Below, piece after piece: positions 3,502 through 46,346 of a stretch of 64,000 nt of DNA. The stretch is from an uncultured bacterium (GTDB taxonomy: Bacteria > Patescibacteriota > Minisyncoccia > Phycocordibacterales > GCA-2401445). The position numbers were made by a program, and so were the translations under genes. The notes below the pieces were generated by a model, which was not told the DNA's origin, ran no database searches, and saw nothing but the letters and a program-made list of their open reading frames with translations. Each line of letters starts with the position of its first letter. Position 1 is the first letter of the stretch. The stretch covers positions 77,633 to 141,632 of the forward strand of contig CALFYW010000016.1 of NCBI GenBank assembly GCA_937952265.1, given 5' to 3'.

Positions 3502-4315
3502 AACTTTTTATAGAATTAAGCGTCTCAAGAATAGTATCAACTTTTATATTTGAAGGATAATTTTCTCTCAATACAGATATTTTCTGATCCATCCTATTAA
3601 GCGAAGGTTTTATCATTTTTTTAATCTCATCAACATCGCCACCGCCTATAAATTCAACAATTTTTTCAATCACGGCGTGATTTTTTGTGTCGTCAATTAA
3701 ATCTTCATATCGGACGAGCATGCTTTCTGTTTGAGACAGATGGTATATCATGTCGCGTTGTGCTTGTGCCCACAAAGAAAGACCGTATTCATAGGTAAAT
3801 TTGGATGGCCAAAATATGTTAAGGAAAGAATGCGTTGCGACATAAGGGTCTCTATAAATTCCAATTATTTTATGTTTGGGGAGATAATCTTTCCAAACAT
3901 AGTAAAAGATTGGGAAATTTTTAATACCCCACCTTTCTTTTTGAGTGCTTAATTTATACAAAACGGTGTGCATCTTTCTTAAAGTTATAAGACGTCTGCA
4001 TTTCTGCCGTAACGTTTTTGCATGTAAATCTACATTACTATCGACACTCCCTCTGTATCCAGCTTCTTTTAAATATTTCCAACTAAGCGCCGAGATTTTT
4101 TTGTGTTCAAAAAATCCATCTGGATTAGTAATCAACGGTTGCTTAAGTTCGCGCTGCTCTCCAAAATTAATTCCACAAGCACTAACAATACTAGCAAGCA
4201 AGCTTGTGCCACTTCTCTGAAATCCCATTATTACAAAGACATCCCCCTTTGTTTTTCTTCTTATTCTTTCGCAGCCGATAAGATTCTCAGTTTTTGTATA
4301 GCTGTAATACGACAT
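3494..4315 (-). CDS. Sulfotransferase family protein
   Basis: 'VIMGFQRSGTSLLASIV' 5'-PSB (PAPS-binding) loop near the N-terminus; length about 270 aa. Confidence 0.6.
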   Translation of the reverse strand: MSYYSYTKTENLIGCERIRRKTKGDVFVIMGFQRSGTSLLASIVSACGINFGEQRELKQPLITNPDGFFEHKKISALSWKYLKEAGYRGSVDSNVDLHAKTLRQKCRRLITLRKMHTVLYKLSTQKERWGIKNFPIFYYVWKDYLPKHKIIGIYRDPYVATHSFLNIFWPSKFTYEYGLSLWAQAQRDMIYHLSQTESMLVRYEDLIDDTKNHAVIEKIVEFIGGGDVDEIKKMIKPSLNRMDQKISVLRENYPSNIKVDTILETLNSIKSYE

Positions 4316-4383
4316 AAACTCATCATAACTAAAATATAGCTAGAAATCTAGTTATTACAGCTCAAATTTGATATCATGGACAT

Positions 4384-6183
4384 ATGGAAGCGCACACTAT
4401 CACTAAAACTATTGCAACTATTAAATCAGCGATTACAGACCTCCTGTCTGATCACGGGATCAGTGCTCCAGAAGTTAAAGTAGAAAAACCTGCTGATTTC
4501 AAACATGGTGATATATCAACCAATGTTGCTCTGCAATACGCGAAAGAGGTCAAGATGAATCCTTATGATTTTGCCTGTCTCATTTGTGAATATTTAACTA
4601 CAAAGAAATTTGTAGGCATCGAGAAAGTTGAGGCAGTGAAGCCCGGATTCGTCAACGTCACTTTTAGTGATATTTTTTACCGAGATCTGGTGCAAGAAAT
4701 TACACACTCTCCTGAAACATATGGAAGAAACAACTCACTAAGCAATTCTAAATGGGTTGTTGAGCATACATCACCCAACCCAAACAAGGCGATGCATCTG
4801 GGTCATCTACGTAATAATCTAATCGGAATGAGCCTTGTACGCATTCTAGAATGGAATGGTGCAGATGTTGTCTCTGACGCAGTAGATAATAATCGTGGAA
4901 TTGCAATTGCCAAGCTTATGTGGGGGTTTCTTGCTCATATGAAAAAAGAAGAAAATATCCCAACCGATGTGGGATATTGGGTATCAAATTCACAAAAGTG
5001 GTATGCACCAGAAGAAAAAGGATTGCTACCTGATATCTTTGTCACAGAATGCTACGTACTTGGAGAATCTGATTTTAAGAAAAACAAAGATGTTGAAAAT
5101 GCTGTGCGCAAATTAGCTGTGCAATGGGAGGCTGAAGATAAAGATGTGCGATTGTTATGGTCTCATGTGCTTAAATATGCATATGAGGGTATGAATAGAA
5201 CACTTACCCGATTAGGTAATCACTGGGATAAGGTTTGGCATGAACATGAACATTATCAAGACGGAAAAAAATATATATATGAAGGGTTGGAAAAAGGTAT
5301 ATTTAAAAAACTCGAAGATGGCGCAGTTTTAACACACCTCGAACAATATGGACTGCCAGATACTATTCTGTTAAAGAACGATGGAACATCATTGTATATT
5401 ACACAAGATATTGCACTTACTGCATTAAAAAAACAAAACTACAATGCAGATAAGCTTGTCTGGGTCATCGGCCCAGAGCAGTCTCTTGCAATGAGACAAT
5501 TATTTGCTGTATGTGAACAGCTCGGAATTGGAAAAATAAGTGATTTTACGCATGTTGCTTATGGATATGTTGGACTGAAAGCTGAAGGTGGTGGCTTTAA
5601 GAAAATGTCCTCTAGGGCAGGGACAGTCGTACTAATTGACGATGTAATTAATGAGGTAAAGGTGAAAATTACTCAAAGGTTGAAAGACAATAAAATTGAA
5701 CAAGGAAACAGCGGTGTGGGTAATCGTGCAGAAAAAATGGCACTCGCGGCTGTTAAATTTAATATCTTAAAATCTGACAGGGTGCAGGATTTAACCTTTG
5801 ATGTAGAGCAGTCTATAGAAACTACAGGAGACTCGGGTGTATATATTTTGTATGCATATGTTAGGACACAAGCAATTTTGCGCAAAGCACAGAATCTTCC
5901 TTCTGTGCCAGACCATGTTGATTCTGGTCTAGAGATTGATGTTCTAAAACAAATAGCACATTTTCCGAATATAGTTGACCGCGCAAAAAAAGATCTATCT
6001 GCGCACCATATTGCACAATATTTACTTGAACTTTGTTCAGCTTTCAACTCATGGTATGGGAAAGAAACTATTCTTGATGGCTCAGAAAAAGAAGGGTACA
6101 AACTAGCTGTGACAAAATCAGTTGGTATTGTTATTAAAAATGGATTAGCAATCCTCGGGATTGATACTGTTGAAGAAATTTGA
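4384..6183 (+). CDS. argS: Arginine--tRNA ligase
   Basis: Class I HIGH-type motif 'HTSPNPNKAMHLGHLRN' and KMSK-like 'KKMSSRAGTVV'; 599 aa. Confidence 0.9.
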   Translation: MEAHTITKTIATIKSAITDLLSDHGISAPEVKVEKPADFKHGDISTNVALQYAKEVKMNPYDFACLICEYLTTKKFVGIEKVEAVKPGFVNVTFSDIFYRDLVQEITHSPETYGRNNSLSNSKWVVEHTSPNPNKAMHLGHLRNNLIGMSLVRILEWNGADVVSDAVDNNRGIAIAKLMWGFLAHMKKEENIPTDVGYWVSNSQKWYAPEEKGLLPDIFVTECYVLGESDFKKNKDVENAVRKLAVQWEAEDKDVRLLWSHVLKYAYEGMNRTLTRLGNHWDKVWHEHEHYQDGKKYIYEGLEKGIFKKLEDGAVLTHLEQYGLPDTILLKNDGTSLYITQDIALTALKKQNYNADKLVWVIGPEQSLAMRQLFAVCEQLGIGKISDFTHVAYGYVGLKAEGGGFKKMSSRAGTVVLIDDVINEVKVKITQRLKDNKIEQGNSGVGNRAEKMALAAVKFNILKSDRVQDLTFDVEQSIETTGDSGVYILYAYVRTQAILRKAQNLPSVPDHVDSGLEIDVLKQIAHFPNIVDRAKKDLSAHHIAQYLLELCSAFNSWYGKETILDGSEKEGYKLAVTKSVGIVIKNGLAILGIDTVEEI

Positions 6184-6194
6184 TTTAAGGGAGC

Positions 6195-6224
6195 AACCCC
6201 GCCCGCGCTAGCGGGCGGGGTTTG
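6195..6224 (+). terminator. Rho-independent terminator of argS
   Basis: GC hairpin ccccgcccgcg-cta-gcgggcgggg followed by TTTGTG. Confidence 0.6.
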
Positions 6225-7195
6225 TGCGCGCACGGGTGGGAGCCGTGTACCAACACGGCATGGGGCAAGCACATACTCAAATGAGCCTCGGGCTATTTCC
6301 GCTAGGAGCGTCCAGGGCTAAAGGACGAGCGCCATCGTCAATCGAAGCCACCACACGCCGAAGCGGAAGCGACACCACAAACGCAAGAATGAAAACTAAA
6401 AGAGGGGGTTGTGCGAGGGCGGACTCCGAAGGCACGTTATACGAAGCCCTAAACGTTAGACGCATCACTACTTTTTACGACAAGCCGTAAACTCTCTGCG
6501 ACCTCTGCGAGGAGGAGCCCGAAGCTGGGGGAGAAAATCGTTTTCTCCCCCAAACAGAGGCGCTGCCCGAGCACCCGCCCCGCAGGGCGGGAGTGCGAGG
6601 AAAAGCAGCGCACATAGGCACCTAGGCGCTCGTAGCCCTAGCGGAAATAGCCCGAGGCGGATGCCGAGGGTGCCATCCCTTTAGCCATGAACGCAAAACA
6701 AGTAGAATAGACCTGTGGCACCACTTTACGAATGACGCCACTTCCACGACTTAGTGGAAGCCGACCGGGCCCCGTTTTCCGCTCCTCAGTTCTTTTCTAT
6801 TGTGGCGGGGGGATTCTTTTTCAAAATTGTATGGGCGGAAAACGGGGCGAGGGCGGAGCGCCGAGCTTGTCGAGGCGCTGGCGGCATGAGTTAGCATCAC
6901 CACGCGATCGGAGCGTACGAGGAAGTACAAAGCCACCACGCACGCGGCGCGTGCGCCTGTCAGACTCTGGCGGAAAGTCAGTCGCGTTGCGACTGGAAGA
7001 AGGTTCGAACTTGGTCGTACAAAGTAGCCAACAAGGATAAAAGAAGGTGTTCAAGTGGAAAAGAGACTAATAAAGGCAATGCGCAACTCAAAAAACTCTC
7101 ACTTAAGTCAGCGATTGAACTCGGAGAGGCAATCTACAAACGGTCTCCTTCAGATCGGTGGAACGAGCTATGGACTCATAAAAACAGAAAAAATT
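6225..7195. other. ORF-less GC-rich block with extensive local and long-range self-complementarity. Candidate large structured RNA or non-autonomous mobile element; the strand is unresolved
   Basis: GC content is far above the flanking DNA. There is no ORF longer than 102 aa and none has an RBS. Bulged inverted repeat 6283-6333 vs 6624-6660 (GGCGCTCGT..CCTAGCGGAAATAGCCCGAGG), plus hairpins ccccgttttccgc/gcggaaaacgggg, gccgtg..cacggc and gggggagaaaatcgttttctccccc. Confidence 0.4.
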
Positions 7196-43636: not shown

Positions 43637-43724
43637 GCGGAGAGTGAGGGATTCGAACCCTCGAGGGGCTATTAACCCCTACCTCGTTAGCAGTGAGGCG
43701 CTTTCGACCACTCAGCCAACTCTC
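43637..43724 (-). tRNA. tRNA-Ser (anticodon GCT), long variable arm
   Basis: Acceptor GGAGAGT/ACTCTCC, 3-bp D-stem, anticodon loop CTGCTAA, variable arm TAGGGGTTAATAGCCCCTC, T-loop TTCGAAT. Confidence 0.8.
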
Positions 43725-43730
43725 CGTGAA

Positions 43731-43970
43731 CTATTTATATTTTCTATAAAGCTGTTCTCTCTTATAACCTTTTTTAAACTTTTTCTCTAGTCTCAATGCC
43801 TCTTTATCAGTATCACAAGAGACCTTCTCGAGGATTATAAGAGGTCTTCGTGCTTTGGTTGATTTGACTTGTCCACTATTATGCTCTCTTAGGCGCCGAT
43901 CTATATTATTCGTTTTGCCAATATAAAAACCTTTATCTTTCTGGCTCTTCAAAATATAAACCCAACACAT
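43731..43970 (-). CDS. GIY-YIG nuclease-domain protein (UPF0213/YhbQ-like)
   Basis: 'MCWVYILKSQKDKGFYIGKTNNIDRRLREHNSG' carries the GIY-(10)-YIG, Arg and HN motifs. Start set at an internal Met. Confidence 0.7.
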   Translation of the reverse strand: MCWVYILKSQKDKGFYIGKTNNIDRRLREHNSGQVKSTKARRPLIILEKVSCDTDKEALRLEKKFKKGYKREQLYRKYK

Positions 43971-44012
43971 GGCATTTTGTTTAGTCTTTCGACCCCTGCC
44001 TGCCGGCAGGCA

Positions 44013-44028
44013 GGACTCAGCCAACTCT
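44013..44028. repeat. 16-nt direct repeat of the tRNA-Ser 5' end (actcagccaactctcc), preceded by the 20-bp palindrome cctgcctgccggcaggcagg
   Basis: Identical 16-mer at 43709-43724 (inside the tRNA-Ser 5' acceptor/D region) and at 44013-44028; the GIY-YIG gene lies between. Confidence 0.6.
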
Positions 44029-44121
44029 CCAAACGAATACACTCTAACATACATTTTCCCGTGCTTCTACGGCATCCGCATTATGCTAGTGAGAAACATG
44101 GTTTTCTCGTACAATAGCACC

Positions 44122-46272
44122 ATGCAATTACATGACCGCCTTGATACCATTGCTCGTCTCACCCCAGCCCAAAAACAAGGTCTTCATAAACTTAAACTGA
44201 TCACGGTTCGTGATCTTCTCTTTCATTTTCCTTCACGATATGGTGCCCCCGGCATACAAAAAAAGATAGCGTCCGTTCTAGCAGAAGAGCAAGTAGTCCT
44301 TTATGGAACCATTGAAAAACTGAAGACGAGCAAAGCATTTCGAAAAAAAATTGCGATGGCAGAAGCGCGACTTACTGACGATACCGGAAATATTAAGCTC
44401 ATTTGGTTTCACCAGCCATATATTGCCAAAAAATTTAAAGAAAACATGCTCGTTCGTGTTGAAGGGAAAGTCTTTGAACGAAATGGGAGTTACTATCTTT
44501 CAAATCCAAAAATTGAACAAATCAATGAAATGCCCCCTGAAGCAAACTCACTTTTTGGATCTTCAGAGACACACCAACCCCTAACGCCCGTCTACCCTGA
44601 AAGTCGCGGTGTGAGTACACACTGGATTCAACATAAAATACAAACCGTACTTAAAAGCGGAATTCTTGAGAAAATTAAAGACCCTCTTCCTTCCGCGATA
44701 CTTACCACCTATCACCTTCCCACCCTCCATACCGCGCTTATCTGGATCCATGCCCCGAAAAAAGAACGCGACGCACTTGCCGCGCGAAAACGCTTTTCAT
44801 TTGAAGAAATTTTTCTGATTCAATTAAAACGCCATCTTGAAAAATCGGCTCGATCAAAATCTCCTGCTTACCCCATCAAGAAAAAAATGCAGGATATACA
44901 AAGTTTTATCGATCGCTTCCCTTTTACGGCTACCAAAGCCCAGGAAAAAGCAATACGGGATATCTTAAAAGATTTTGCGCGAGAAACCCCCATGGCACGA
45001 CTCCTTGAAGGGGATGTGGGAAGCGGGAAAACCTCGGTCGCGGCGGCAACCGTCTATGCGAGCGCGACAACGCGCCCGAAGGAAAGCGGATCTGGAGCAC
45101 TTCAAACCGCATACATGGTTCCTACCGAAGTACTTGCTAAACAGCAGTTTGAAAACTTCATTAAATTTTTTGCGCACATGCCCATTACCATTGGCCTCCT
45201 TACGGGAAGTGGATGTAAAAAATTTCCATCAAAAGTCGACCCAACTGCCGCAACTGAAATCTCTCGCGCCCAACTCTTAAAATGGGTAGCCAATGGAGAA
45301 ATACCCATTATCGTTGGTACCCATGCTTTGATTCAAAAAACAGTGCGCTTTAAAAACTTGGCATTGGTAATCGTTGATGAACAACACCGGTTTGGTGTTG
45401 CCCAACGCCAAACACTCCTTCAGAAAGAAGGGGTCACTCCTCACCTCCTTTCAATGACCGCCACACCTATTCCTCGGACACTCGCGCTCACGATGTACGG
45501 CGACCTTGACCTGACCATTCTTGACGAAATGCCTAAAGGAAGAAAACCAGTTATGACCGAGATCATACCGCCCGACAAACGAGATGCGGTATATGAAAAA
45601 ATACGCGATGAACTTCTTCAAGGTCGCCAAGCGTATGTTATTTGCCCCCGTATTGATGAACCTGACCCTGATAAAGTGCTTGCACTTAATGCAAAATCAG
45701 CAAAAGCTGAAGCAAAGCGTCTCCAGCAAAAAATTTTCCCTGAATATACGGTAGGAGTCCTTCACGGCAAACAAACCCCAAAAGAAAAGGAAGCGGTAAT
45801 GTTGCGTTTTTCACGAGGAGAAATCAATATTTTGGTCGCCACATCCGTTGTTGAAGTCGGGGTGAGCGTTCCCAATGCAACAATGATCATCATTGAGGGC
45901 GCGGAACGATTTGGACTCGCGCAACTTCACCAACTTCGAGGAAGAGTAATTCGAAGCACGCATCAAGCATACTGTTTTGTGTTTACGGAATCACGCGCGC
46001 CGAAAACAATCGAGCGACTTCGAGCACTTACGATTGCGAAAAATGGCTTTGAGCTTGCAGAGCAAGACCTCGTATTTCGTGGCGCAGGAACGCTCTCCGG
46101 CATTCGACAGTGGGGCATGTCCGATGTCGCGATGGATGCCTTACAGAACCTGAAAATGGTAGAGGCTGCGCGCGAAGAAGCGCGCCTGCTTCTTGAGAGA
46201 GACCCCTTATTATCAAAATATCCGCTTCTGAAAGAGAGCGTCGCTTCTGCATCACATATTCATTTTGAATGA
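44122..46272 (+). CDS. recG: ATP-dependent DNA helicase RecG
   Basis: Wedge domain, Walker A 'GDVGSGKTSVAAA', 'IVDEQHRFGV', 'TATPIPRTL'. Start at ATG 44122 preceded by tacaat. Confidence 0.9.
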   Translation: MQLHDRLDTIARLTPAQKQGLHKLKLITVRDLLFHFPSRYGAPGIQKKIASVLAEEQVVLYGTIEKLKTSKAFRKKIAMAEARLTDDTGNIKLIWFHQPYIAKKFKENMLVRVEGKVFERNGSYYLSNPKIEQINEMPPEANSLFGSSETHQPLTPVYPESRGVSTHWIQHKIQTVLKSGILEKIKDPLPSAILTTYHLPTLHTALIWIHAPKKERDALAARKRFSFEEIFLIQLKRHLEKSARSKSPAYPIKKKMQDIQSFIDRFPFTATKAQEKAIRDILKDFARETPMARLLEGDVGSGKTSVAAATVYASATTRPKESGSGALQTAYMVPTEVLAKQQFENFIKFFAHMPITIGLLTGSGCKKFPSKVDPTAATEISRAQLLKWVANGEIPIIVGTHALIQKTVRFKNLALVIVDEQHRFGVAQRQTLLQKEGVTPHLLSMTATPIPRTLALTMYGDLDLTILDEMPKGRKPVMTEIIPPDKRDAVYEKIRDELLQGRQAYVICPRIDEPDPDKVLALNAKSAKAEAKRLQQKIFPEYTVGVLHGKQTPKEKEAVMLRFSRGEINILVATSVVEVGVSVPNATMIIIEGAERFGLAQLHQLRGRVIRSTHQAYCFVFTESRAPKTIERLRALTIAKNGFELAEQDLVFRGAGTLSGIRQWGMSDVAMDALQNLKMVEAAREEARLLLERDPLLSKYPLLKESVASASHIHFE

Positions 46273-46274
46273 AG

Positions 46275-46346
46275 TGCGCGTGGAGGGATTCGAACCCCCA
46301 ACAACCCGCGTATAAGGCGGACACTCTACCATTGAGTTACACGCGC
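46275..46346 (-). tRNA. tRNA-Ile (anticodon TAT)
   Basis: Acceptor GCGCGTG/CACGCGC, D-stem ACTC/GAGT, anticodon stem TCCGC/GCGGG with loop CTTATAC, T-stem GGGGG/CCCTC. Confidence 0.65.

Follow-up and report, generated by a model that had tools for sequence, protein, structure and literature searches.

Integrase elements that reside in tRNA genes duplicate the 3′ part of the tRNA, and insertions in the rRNA genes of Candidate Phyla Radiation (CPR) bacteria encode homing endonucleases. Short palindromic mobile repeats are represented by REP/RAYT, Rickettsia palindromic elements and MITEs, and the Rickettsia palindromic elements have been reported in intergenic DNA, in RNA genes and in frame in protein genes. 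Regarding the enzymes, nucleases of the GIY-YIG type make staggered cuts, and Slx1 cleaves branched DNA and junctions. Phage T4 SegB is a free-standing GIY-YIG homing endonuclease that lies among tRNA genes, recognises a T-psi-C stem-loop motif and drives the inheritance of itself and of the neighbouring tRNA genes (PMC2330249). The structures 1ywl and 1zg2 were placed in an Slx1 cluster of minimal standalone domains, apart from the UvrC/homing-endonuclease lineage, and this cluster is without auxiliary domains and without a conserved C-terminal Asn (PMC1564403). The same work treats the prokaryotic Slx1-like proteins as mostly vertically inherited, of unknown role and not selfish, and describes a prokaryotic Slx1-like GIY-YIG domain fused with TrmH (tRNA G18 methyltransferase), for which a role in RNA metabolism was suggested (PMC1564403). 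In the literature we found no assigned role for standalone bacterial Slx1/UPF0213-type GIY-YIG proteins.

The locus reported here, which comes from a patescibacterium, lies in a 64-kb window, by which we mean the whole stretch of DNA that was analysed (64,000 nucleotides). It is made up of the following parts:

43637..43725, minus strand: intact tRNA-Ser(GCU), class II with a long variable arm (ARAGORN; Rfam RF00005, 57.6 bits, full length)
43701..43709, minus strand: B(2), tRNA nt 17-25, GGTCGAAAG, the downstream copy of the 9-nt continuation (repeat family D10)
43710..43725, minus strand: A(2), tRNA nt 1-16, GGAGAGTTGGCTGAGT, the downstream copy of the 16-nt repeat (repeat search)
43731..43970, minus strand: GIY-YIG coding sequence of 79 aa, ATG 43970-43968, TAG 43733-43731 (Slx1/UPF0213-type minimal domain)
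43971..43985, minus strand: spacer of 15 nt from the pseudo-tRNA fragment to the ATG, without a Shine-Dalgarno motif
43986..43994, minus strand: B(1), copy of tRNA nt 17-25, GGTCGAAAG (repeat finder)
43995..44014, no strand assigned: P, perfect 20-bp palindrome CCTGCCTGCCGGCAGGCAGG, between pseudo-tRNA nt 16 and 17
44015..44030, minus strand: A(1), copy of tRNA nt 1-16, GGAGAGTTGGCTGAGT, with tRNA homology from exactly +1 (repeat search)
44031..44121, no strand assigned: divergent intergenic region from the cassette to recG (recG at 44122-46272, plus strand)

Read along the minus strand, the order is A(1) (44030-44015), P (44014-43995), B(1) (43994-43986), the spacer, the ORF, five bases and tRNA-Ser (43725-43637), whose 5′ end reads GGAGAGTTGGCTGAGT-GGTCGAAAG. 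The stop codon of the GIY-YIG gene is located 5 nt ahead of tRNA-Ser +1, and the promoter that formerly served the tRNA-Ser is presumably contained in 44031..44121.

The first-pass annotation had noticed a 16-nt repeat, one copy of which lies in the tRNA-Ser, and a palindrome adjacent to the other. The 16-mer ACTCAGCCAACTCTCC is real, and the window contains exactly two copies of it (43710-43725 and 44015-44030), the coordinates first given being 1-2 nt too low; 0.04 matches were expected from shuffles, and two copies were reached in 0 out of 100 shuffles. It starts exactly at tRNA +1 and is a partial duplicate of the tRNA 5′ side, for which it had been taken. The extent of the repeat needs to be corrected, because the nine bases beyond P continue the tRNA as nt 17-25 and had been missed, so that the upstream repeat is a copy of the tRNA 5′ end of 25 nt in full, split by P. 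The spacing of the copies is 305 for the 16-mer (repeat family D3) compared to 285 for the 9-mer (family D10), and the difference of 20 nt is P. The palindrome, perfect over its 20 bp, is thus not merely adjacent to the repeat but sits inside it, between nt 16 and 17, in the D-loop of the pseudo-tRNA and immediately ahead of the D-loop GG. It is foldable into an 8-bp stem with a CCGG loop, its expected count in the 64-kb window is 0, and it is unique there even if three mismatches are allowed.

We give next to no credit to a chance repeat accompanied by an ordinary terminator or operator hairpin. That P is found in an intergenic region would suit it, and nothing further does, whereas the shuffle expectations (0.04 for the 16-mer and 0 for P), the location of P between divergent genes without a T-tract, and the recurrence of the arrangement across loci contradict it. 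A terminator or promoter element was also rejected for P from its position between divergent genes, the lack of a T-tract and consensus scans that yielded nothing useful. A known RNA family or tRNA intron was rejected since only the tRNA itself matches Rfam and no intron model matches; a group I or bulge-helix-bulge intron of the tRNA is further at odds with the completeness of the downstream tRNA and with an upstream fragment that has no 3′ half. Defence-system and phage-family assignments gave weak generic matches only.

Between the 16-mer copies the GIY-YIG gene is the only ORF, as had been claimed. Its true start, according to the alignment of homologues, is the ATG at 43970, which leads to a protein of 79 aa and not to the 107-aa ORF from 44054. 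The annotation of this 107-aa ORF reads through the pseudo-tRNA and P.

The protein matches PF01541 over residues 1-73 with 64.2 bits at a cut-off of 22.6 (E=1.4e-17). It exceeds the curated threshold of the GIY-YIG superfamily and possesses the conserved Tyr (GIY), Tyr (YIG), Arg and Glu, and in an alignment of 18 sequences Y5, Y16, G18, R26, H30 and E62 are invariant. Among solved structures, the profile search matched 1ywl (9.7e-12) and 1zg2 (1.7e-11), both UPF0213, and SLX1 (2.2e-5). The 79 aa represent the catalytic domain alone, without an auxiliary or DNA-binding domain; no invariant Asn after E62 was seen in protein alignments A1 and A2, and the group I intron endonuclease model TIGR01453 reached 20.4 bits at a cut-off of 56. 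Nearest relatives and the minimal domain without the C-terminal Asn place the protein in the Slx1/UPF0213 standalone lineage. The HMM classification that had been proposed is herewith answered: from its sequence relationships the protein is YhbQ/UPF0213/Slx1-like and not I-TevI-like. The earlier suggestion of a homing-type module therefore stands regarding the GIY-YIG nuclease family and falls regarding a classical two-domain homing endonuclease of the I-TevI/Seg type, whose defining catalytic and C-terminal DNA-binding architecture is absent. The wider family is large, as 14,491 clusters (50% identity) match the profile at E<=0.001 and 1,911 at E<=1e-10.

If the locus is set beside the systems named above, SegB is the closest functional analogue, the common logic being that a conserved RNA gene is targeted and its flanks are co-converted. 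SegB belongs to the I-TevI-like lineage, whereas the present protein is a 79-aa catalytic domain of the Slx1/UPF0213 lineage known here from sequence, and SegB loci have neither a pseudo-tRNA leader nor a conserved palindrome, both of which are found at the present locus. UPF0213/YhbQ (1ywl, 1zg2) and Slx1 are the best sequence matches and are likewise minimal domains; for these, no obligate linkage to tRNA or rRNA genes or to a specific palindrome is described (PMC1564403), in contrast to what is seen here. The present element duplicates the 5′ part of the tRNA from +1, with a palindrome lying within the incomplete copy, while integrase elements duplicate the 3′ part. The complete and partial tRNA copies that form the direct repeats of integrase elements do resemble the present repeats, but those elements measure kilobases and depend on an integrase, whereas the present one is about 300 bp long and has a nuclease gene only (PMC9897764). 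An integrase-type element was accordingly rejected, there being no tyrosine or serine recombinase and the sole ORF between the repeats being the GIY-YIG gene.

A protein-based scan of metagenome contigs, with a profile from a narrowed alignment since the first one was too diverse, led to 40 distinct ORFs of at least 51% identity. This survey is the unbiased measure of the conservation of P, whereas sites selected by P are intact by ascertainment. A tRNA-Ser follows the ORF in all 38 evaluable distinct loci, with the anticodons GCU (22), GGA (10), UGA (4) and CGA (2) and a gap of 1-26 nt, rarely of 61 or 168 nt. Among 37 loci, P occurs 32 times as the exact pattern, four times with 1-2 substitutions and once in a 16-nt form that is still foldable, and in 36 of them the position of P or its 1-2-nt variant is exactly nt 16|17 of the pseudo-tRNA. 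In 24 out of 26 scored loci A measures exactly 16 nt, with tRNA homology from +1, and B varies from 2 to 17 nt and gathers mismatches. The first three homologue contexts (58-63% identity) illustrate the identical layout, namely nt 1-16 of the local tRNA-Ser, P, local nt 17 onward, the ORF and the full tRNA-Ser; their neighbours are guaA, infB and a PGA_cap-family gene, and recG is the neighbour at the present locus. The dN/dS of the ORF amounts to 0.03-0.09 at a dS of 0.4 to >1, and on these ratios the ORF is under purifying selection. P is invariant in most surveyed loci despite this divergence, at which a neutral 20-mer would rarely be intact, and this argues that P is under strong constraint. 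No Shine-Dalgarno motif was found in the leader. The four-part unit of pseudo-tRNA nt 1-16, P, the remains of nt 17 onward and the ORF is a conserved family architecture, seen ahead of tRNA-Ser genes in many uncultured Patescibacteria, and not a one-off accident.

This bears on the proposal that the gene arrived by an insertion that partly duplicated the tRNA. The marks of a selfish element are found, as set out below, but the simple bracket with a local target-site duplication is not sustained, since the same layout is present family-wide and the fragments in L145 and L158/159 are foreign. We regard a single local insertion into this tRNA-Ser, with a 16-nt target-site duplication and an unrelated palindrome adjacent to it, as very improbable. 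An exact 16-nt direct repeat brackets one small gene, as such an event would leave it; yet the repeat is 25 nt long and split by P, the same layout in 38 diverged loci implies that the whole arrangement was inherited, pseudo-fragments can be foreign to the local tRNA, and the lengths of B vary, unlike those of a duplication with fixed stagger. Conservation of gene and repeat in all relatives, with the 16-mer as a promoter or regulatory element, had been named as the finding that would speak against an insertion, and the picture is mixed: within the protein family the arrangement is conserved, but the genomic sites differ, and so do the isoacceptor genes.

The comparison of neighbourhoods in related genomes gave a partial answer. 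In L128, a distant relative (RecG 62% identical), the tRNA-Ser(GCU) is empty: the cassette is absent, and the 5′ flank is AT-rich. Synteny upstream of recG is not kept, and no pair of close relatives that differ in the presence of the cassette was found, the nearest RecG homologues being no more than 65% identical. Two loci (L157, L163) have a second tRNA-Ser, of the UGA type, on the same contig without an ORF cassette. The loci L164/L172/L174 and L144/L146 form orthologous sets with similar flanks, so that residence can be long, and the similarity between L139 and L161 ends exactly at the tRNA 3′ end.

A further hint towards movement arises from the pseudo-fragments themselves. In L158/159 the nearest relatives of the ORF are located at tRNA-Ser genes of the CGCATAGT/GGYCTAGTGC type; the pseudo-fragment GGAGAGGT-CGCATAGT-P-GGCCTAGTGCA is of the relatives' type, and the local tRNA reads GGAGAGGTGCGTGAGTGGATGAAAC. 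The A(1) of L158 is chimeric, with 8 nt of each tRNA type. In L145 the pseudo A is identical to that of the UGA-linked relatives of the element, and the local tRNA deviates from it at nt 6-7. These fragments foreign to the local tRNA-Ser show that fragment, P and ORF travel as a unit, and the junctions in L145 and L158/159 place the exchange point within tRNA nt 1-8. A break at nt 16|17 that makes use of the recipient's own A(1) is contradicted by this exchange within nt 1-8 in L145 and L158. We further observed two tandem units in L151, one with an internally deleted ORF, and ORF-less units at tRNA-Leu and tRNA-Val genes. As judged from these comparisons, vertical inheritance of the unit extends over long distances, with occasional moves to other tRNA-Ser genes.

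Related proteins are also found in other niches. Inside 23S rRNA genes lie GIY-YIG ORFs that are 40-55% identical over the N-terminal half; Rfam LSU matches span their positions, and group I introns are nearby. These share the host group, the protein clade and the conserved RNA gene as target with the rRNA-gene insertions of CPR bacteria, which interrupt the gene and are spliced out or tolerated, whereas the tRNA-Ser cassette leaves an intact gene by means of the partial duplicate. A subfamily of 41-47% identity lies upstream of tRNA-Asp, with a pseudo-tRNA-Asp as leader in which the anticodon arm is replaced by a different hairpin (TCCCGACTAAGTCGGGA). In L180 a related ORF occupies the 16|17 position of tRNA-Ser with other hairpins in place of P, and L190 has a mirror-image arrangement with a 3′ fragment. 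P-bearing ORFs of 30-35% identity occur at tRNA-Arg, tRNA-Lys and tRNA-Leu genes; in the tRNA-Arg case the repeat spans about -33 to +54, and in the tRNA-Leu case there are two copies of P, located in the D-loop and in the anticodon loop. Finally, L110 contains P and the ORF in frame within an hsdS-like gene, the N-terminal repeat of which shows the uninterrupted sequence, so that P and the ORF can be recognised as two insertions 21 nt apart without target duplication. On these placements, the protein clade is one whose members occupy conserved RNA genes.

With little more than even confidence we favour the explanation that the unit is a compact selfish homing-type cassette of Patescibacteria, resident immediately 5′ of tRNA-Ser genes and specialised on their 5′ ends. 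We count in its favour the recurrent architecture, the constraint on the ORF and on P, the varied flanking genes, the end of similarity at the tRNA 3′ end between L139 and L161, the empty site in L128, the foreign pseudo-fragments, the tandem in L151, the relatives in 23S rRNA genes, at other tRNA genes and in the hsdS-like gene of L110, and the constant proximity of P to the nuclease gene; the original suggestion of a selfish cassette is borne out insofar as relatives reside in 23S rRNA genes and beside other tRNA genes, neighbourhoods are unrelated and one distant tRNA-Ser(GCU) is empty. We count against it that the protein has no DNA-binding domain, that the intact downstream tRNA keeps any target lying within the tRNA, that strong purifying selection and vertical inheritance would suit a domesticated gene just as well, that tRNA-Ser(UGA) genes are unoccupied in L157 and L163, and that 185 out of 191 sampled copies of P are without a GIY-YIG gene.

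Mechanistically, the putative nuclease might break or nick the DNA at tRNA-Ser genes or at P, and repair would then copy the cassette from an occupied locus. The full tRNA could serve as one homology arm and the 16-nt A(1) as a short arm that captures the other end. Such a copying with two arms would keep A(1) perfect while B(1) decays, would set the boundary of homology at +1 and would produce the chimeric junctions of L145 and L158. As an intact tRNA-Ser follows the cassette, the host keeps its tRNA. P would most likely represent a cis site of the element, which would serve the nuclease either as a hairpin or cruciform or as a palindrome to bind. Its symmetry, its invariance beyond that of the protein and its off-centre nesting are compatible with staggered GIY-YIG cuts or with Slx1-like junction cleavage, and by analogy the Slx1-type cleavage of branched DNA might suit a cruciform made by P. 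The gene could be expressed, probably by read-through from the tRNA promoter, with the tRNA being released by RNase P; the consensus promoter scans of the locus were uninformative and lend no support to co-transcription with the tRNA.

An explanation that we hold to be unlikely, and still keep in view, is that of a domesticated host module, in which the nuclease gene and its leader (the tRNA mimic and the P hairpin) are a stable, vertically inherited partner in the tRNA-Ser operon with a role in tRNA/RNA metabolism or DNA repair, P and A(1) acting as regulatory or stabilising RNA elements of the 5′ UTR. It would agree with the dN/dS of 0.03-0.09 over saturated synonymous divergence, with the cassette being retained at orthologous loci, and with the role in RNA metabolism suggested for the Slx1-like GIY-YIG-TrmH fusion (PMC1564403). 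The P hairpin is the sole conserved fold of the leader, no other conserved RNA structure having been found there, and the substitutions in P keep G-U pairing on the sense strand in about 7 cases compared to about 2 in which they do not, a bias based on too few events for significance. Domestication is difficult to reconcile, however, with the same protein clade in 23S rRNA genes, an hsdS-like gene and four other tRNA types, with the existence of empty tRNA-Ser genes, with the foreign-type pseudo-fragments in L145 and L158, and with tandem and ORF-deleted units.

The element would be of a known kind, namely that of selfish nuclease cassettes directed at conserved RNA genes; for the cassette architecture and for P we found no published description. 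Likewise no published description of GIY-YIG genes with partial tRNA copies was found, and the string of P was absent from the literature searched. One clade of the very common standalone GIY-YIG proteins is hereby tied to a precise context, the tRNA-Ser 5′ end and an invariant 20-bp palindrome, and this DNA context provides a defined substrate for biochemistry. The locus further shows a route by which a selfish gene could occupy an essential single-copy tRNA gene without destroying the tRNA, and explains, for the genomes of uncultured bacteria, a class of partial tRNA fragments and of ORF calls that are too long.

P itself extends far beyond the cassette. In species genomes the exact pattern gave at least 120 matches, and the phyla and classes among the matches listed include Bacteroidota (with cultured isolates), Planctomycetota, Omnitrophota, Patescibacteria, Gammaproteobacteria, Nitrospirota, Ignavibacteria, Bdellovibrionota and Chloroflexi. 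Viral contigs contributed 53 stretches with P, mostly from contigs of 60-70% GC, in which P forms the core of longer repeats; no full-length match was found in cultured phages or plasmids. A GIY-YIG gene adjoins 6 of the 191 sampled P sites. The search for decayed GIY-YIG genes around solo P with a stop-tolerant HMM (420 nt on each side of the 191 sites) returned only these 6 intact genes and 0 in controls, and solo P sites as decayed GIY-YIG elements were rejected because the remaining 185 have neither a gene nor a detectable remnant. For the same reason P is not simply a part of the tRNA-Ser element. In the loci selected by P, every GIY-YIG gene lies downstream of a P, at a distance of 17-136 nt, and beside P no second protein family is found repeatedly.

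At all sites for which the sequence without P is known, the palindrome has been inserted as exactly 20 bp and without duplication. It is nested inside another P at 9|11, one base off centre, forms the variable arm of an intact phage-like tRNA-Met in L243, and occurs in frame in two histidine-kinase genes. In this P resembles the Rickettsia palindromic elements, being a short GC-rich palindrome in intergenic DNA, RNA genes and in-frame protein genes; it differs from the short palindromic mobile repeats in its length of only 20 bp, the missing target duplication, its identity across phyla and its low copy number (one in the 64-kb window). Membership in the REP/MITE class was rejected on account of the exact insertions without duplication and of the linked protein family, which is GIY-YIG and not a Y1 transposase.

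These observations permit a reversed order of events, in which P came first as an independent palindrome, mobile or functional and widely distributed, whose insertion into tRNA-like loops, hairpins and genes leaves no target duplication, the GIY-YIG gene being a secondary parasite that homes 13-55 nt beside P as its recognition site, and the pseudo-tRNA merely a tolerated place of insertion. All ORFs have P while about 3% of the P sites have the ORF, with no remnants at the rest; exact 20-bp insertions occur in tRNA D-loops, the variable loop of the tRNA-Met in L243 and the hsdS-like gene of L110, where a gap of 21 nt separates P and the ORF; and P within P at 9|11 as well as P in frame in histidine-kinase genes point in the same direction. 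We nevertheless judge this order quite doubtful. It leaves the perfect A(1) beginning at +1 and the origin of the 5′ duplication unaccounted for, other hairpins take the place of P in L180, where a related ORF occupies the same position at tRNA-Ser, the hairpin of the tRNA-Asp subfamily is likewise not P, and we know of no enzyme able to move P.

The identical palindrome in many phyla may point to an undescribed mobile or functional DNA motif. More speculatively, and unlikely in our estimate, P might be a minimal mobile DNA common to bacterial phyla, which would extrude as a hairpin or cruciform, be cut, excised or copied by structure-specific Slx1-like GIY-YIG nucleases, and insert without target duplication into tRNA-like loops, hairpins and in frame into genes, the tRNA-Ser cassette then being its autonomous, nuclease-encoding form. 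If this were true, it would provide a first function for the orphan standalone UPF0213/YhbQ family and a new class of mobile elements. Concerning P hidden in otherwise intact tRNA genes, the in silico deletion of P revealed no further convincing tRNA besides that of L243. An extra tRNA-Val call obtained in L056 after deletion of P spans a pseudo-fragment and appears to be spurious.

In the public annotation the minus-strand interval 43731-44054 of the window is given as a 107-aa protein (P0001), the first 28 residues of which are the pseudo-tRNA, the partial 5' copy of the tRNA preceding the GIY-YIG ORF, and the perfect 20-bp palindrome (P) translated through (..GELAESCLPAGRG..). Similar false extensions, N- or C-terminal and running into P or into the tRNA, occur in several homologues.

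P is also found inside protein-coding genes. The hsdS-like gene of comparison locus L110 (about 3800-4330) holds both P and a GIY-YIG domain in frame, and the same protein's N-terminal repeat (..KLVEQDPNDPPASELLKEIEAEK..) gives the uninterrupted sequence. There are 21 nt of target between P and the ORF block, and comparison with this repeat revealed no target duplication at the P and ORF insertions of L110. Two neighbouring histidine-kinase paralogues in L118 carry P at 1291-1310 and 3540-3559; in the HATPase domain of both, P and another palindrome, CCCTCTCCTTTGGAGAGGG, are translated in frame (..SLSFGEGQGLPAGRQGE..).

Among about 170 P-bearing loci the sole convincing intact tRNA with P is a tRNA-Met on a viral-type contig (L243, 2239-2330), which is otherwise intact and has P as a long variable arm. 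In L029 (4017-4225) P lies in the D-arm of a tRNA 5' fragment (GTCAGGG...), which is followed by a complete tRNA-Met with short inverted repeats on both sides and then by the corresponding 3' portion of that first, fragmented tRNA (...CCCTGACACCA). In L163 (560-680) the second tRNA-Ser gene, tRNA-Ser(UGA), is closely preceded by a copied tRNA-Ser-like 5' half; this copy has neither P nor an ORF, and may represent a footprint or a precursor state. Six P copies were observed on one 29.5-kb viral-type contig of about 60% GC (L239, L248 and L250), each within one of two longer repeat families, e.g. ...GGGTGCCCCATCCTCGCGGTTTTTG-P-CGAGGGTGGGTC...

ORFs related to the GIY-YIG protein of the window are contained in the 23S rRNA genes of six loci, placed after the conserved ...CCGTAACTTCGGGATAAGGC... 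region:

About 1501 or locus-specific: position of the 23S-located GIY-YIG ORF in L189, L194, L196, L200, L201 and L207

Group I introns were detected near the ORF in L189 and L201, without spanning it. A GIY-YIG subfamily lies upstream of tRNA-Asp(GUC) in L176-L186, where the leader is a pseudo-tRNA-Asp with the hairpin TCCCGACTAAGTCGGGA in place of the anticodon arm and more partial copies occur downstream of the tRNA. A different small GIY-YIG gene is located between infB and rbfA in L004 (1121-1381, minus strand), with a 16-nt inverted repeat on each side (CCCCACACCTAATGAG and CTCATTAGGTGTGGGG). Directly upstream of tRNA-Cys lies a third GIY-YIG gene, preceded by tRNA-like debris.

Elsewhere in the window, the roughly 850 nt that immediately follow argS (4384-6183) are GC-rich and non-coding (6190-7050). 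They contain several strong hairpins, e.g. at 6195-6222, 6526-6552 and 6939-6955, and yielded neither a convincing ORF nor an Rfam match at E<=0.01. One further tRNA gene may be listed:

46274-46346, minus strand: tRNA-Ile with anticodon UAU, between recG and ftsH

This recG/ftsH neighbourhood of tRNA-Ile(UAU) is common to two relatives (L126 and L128).
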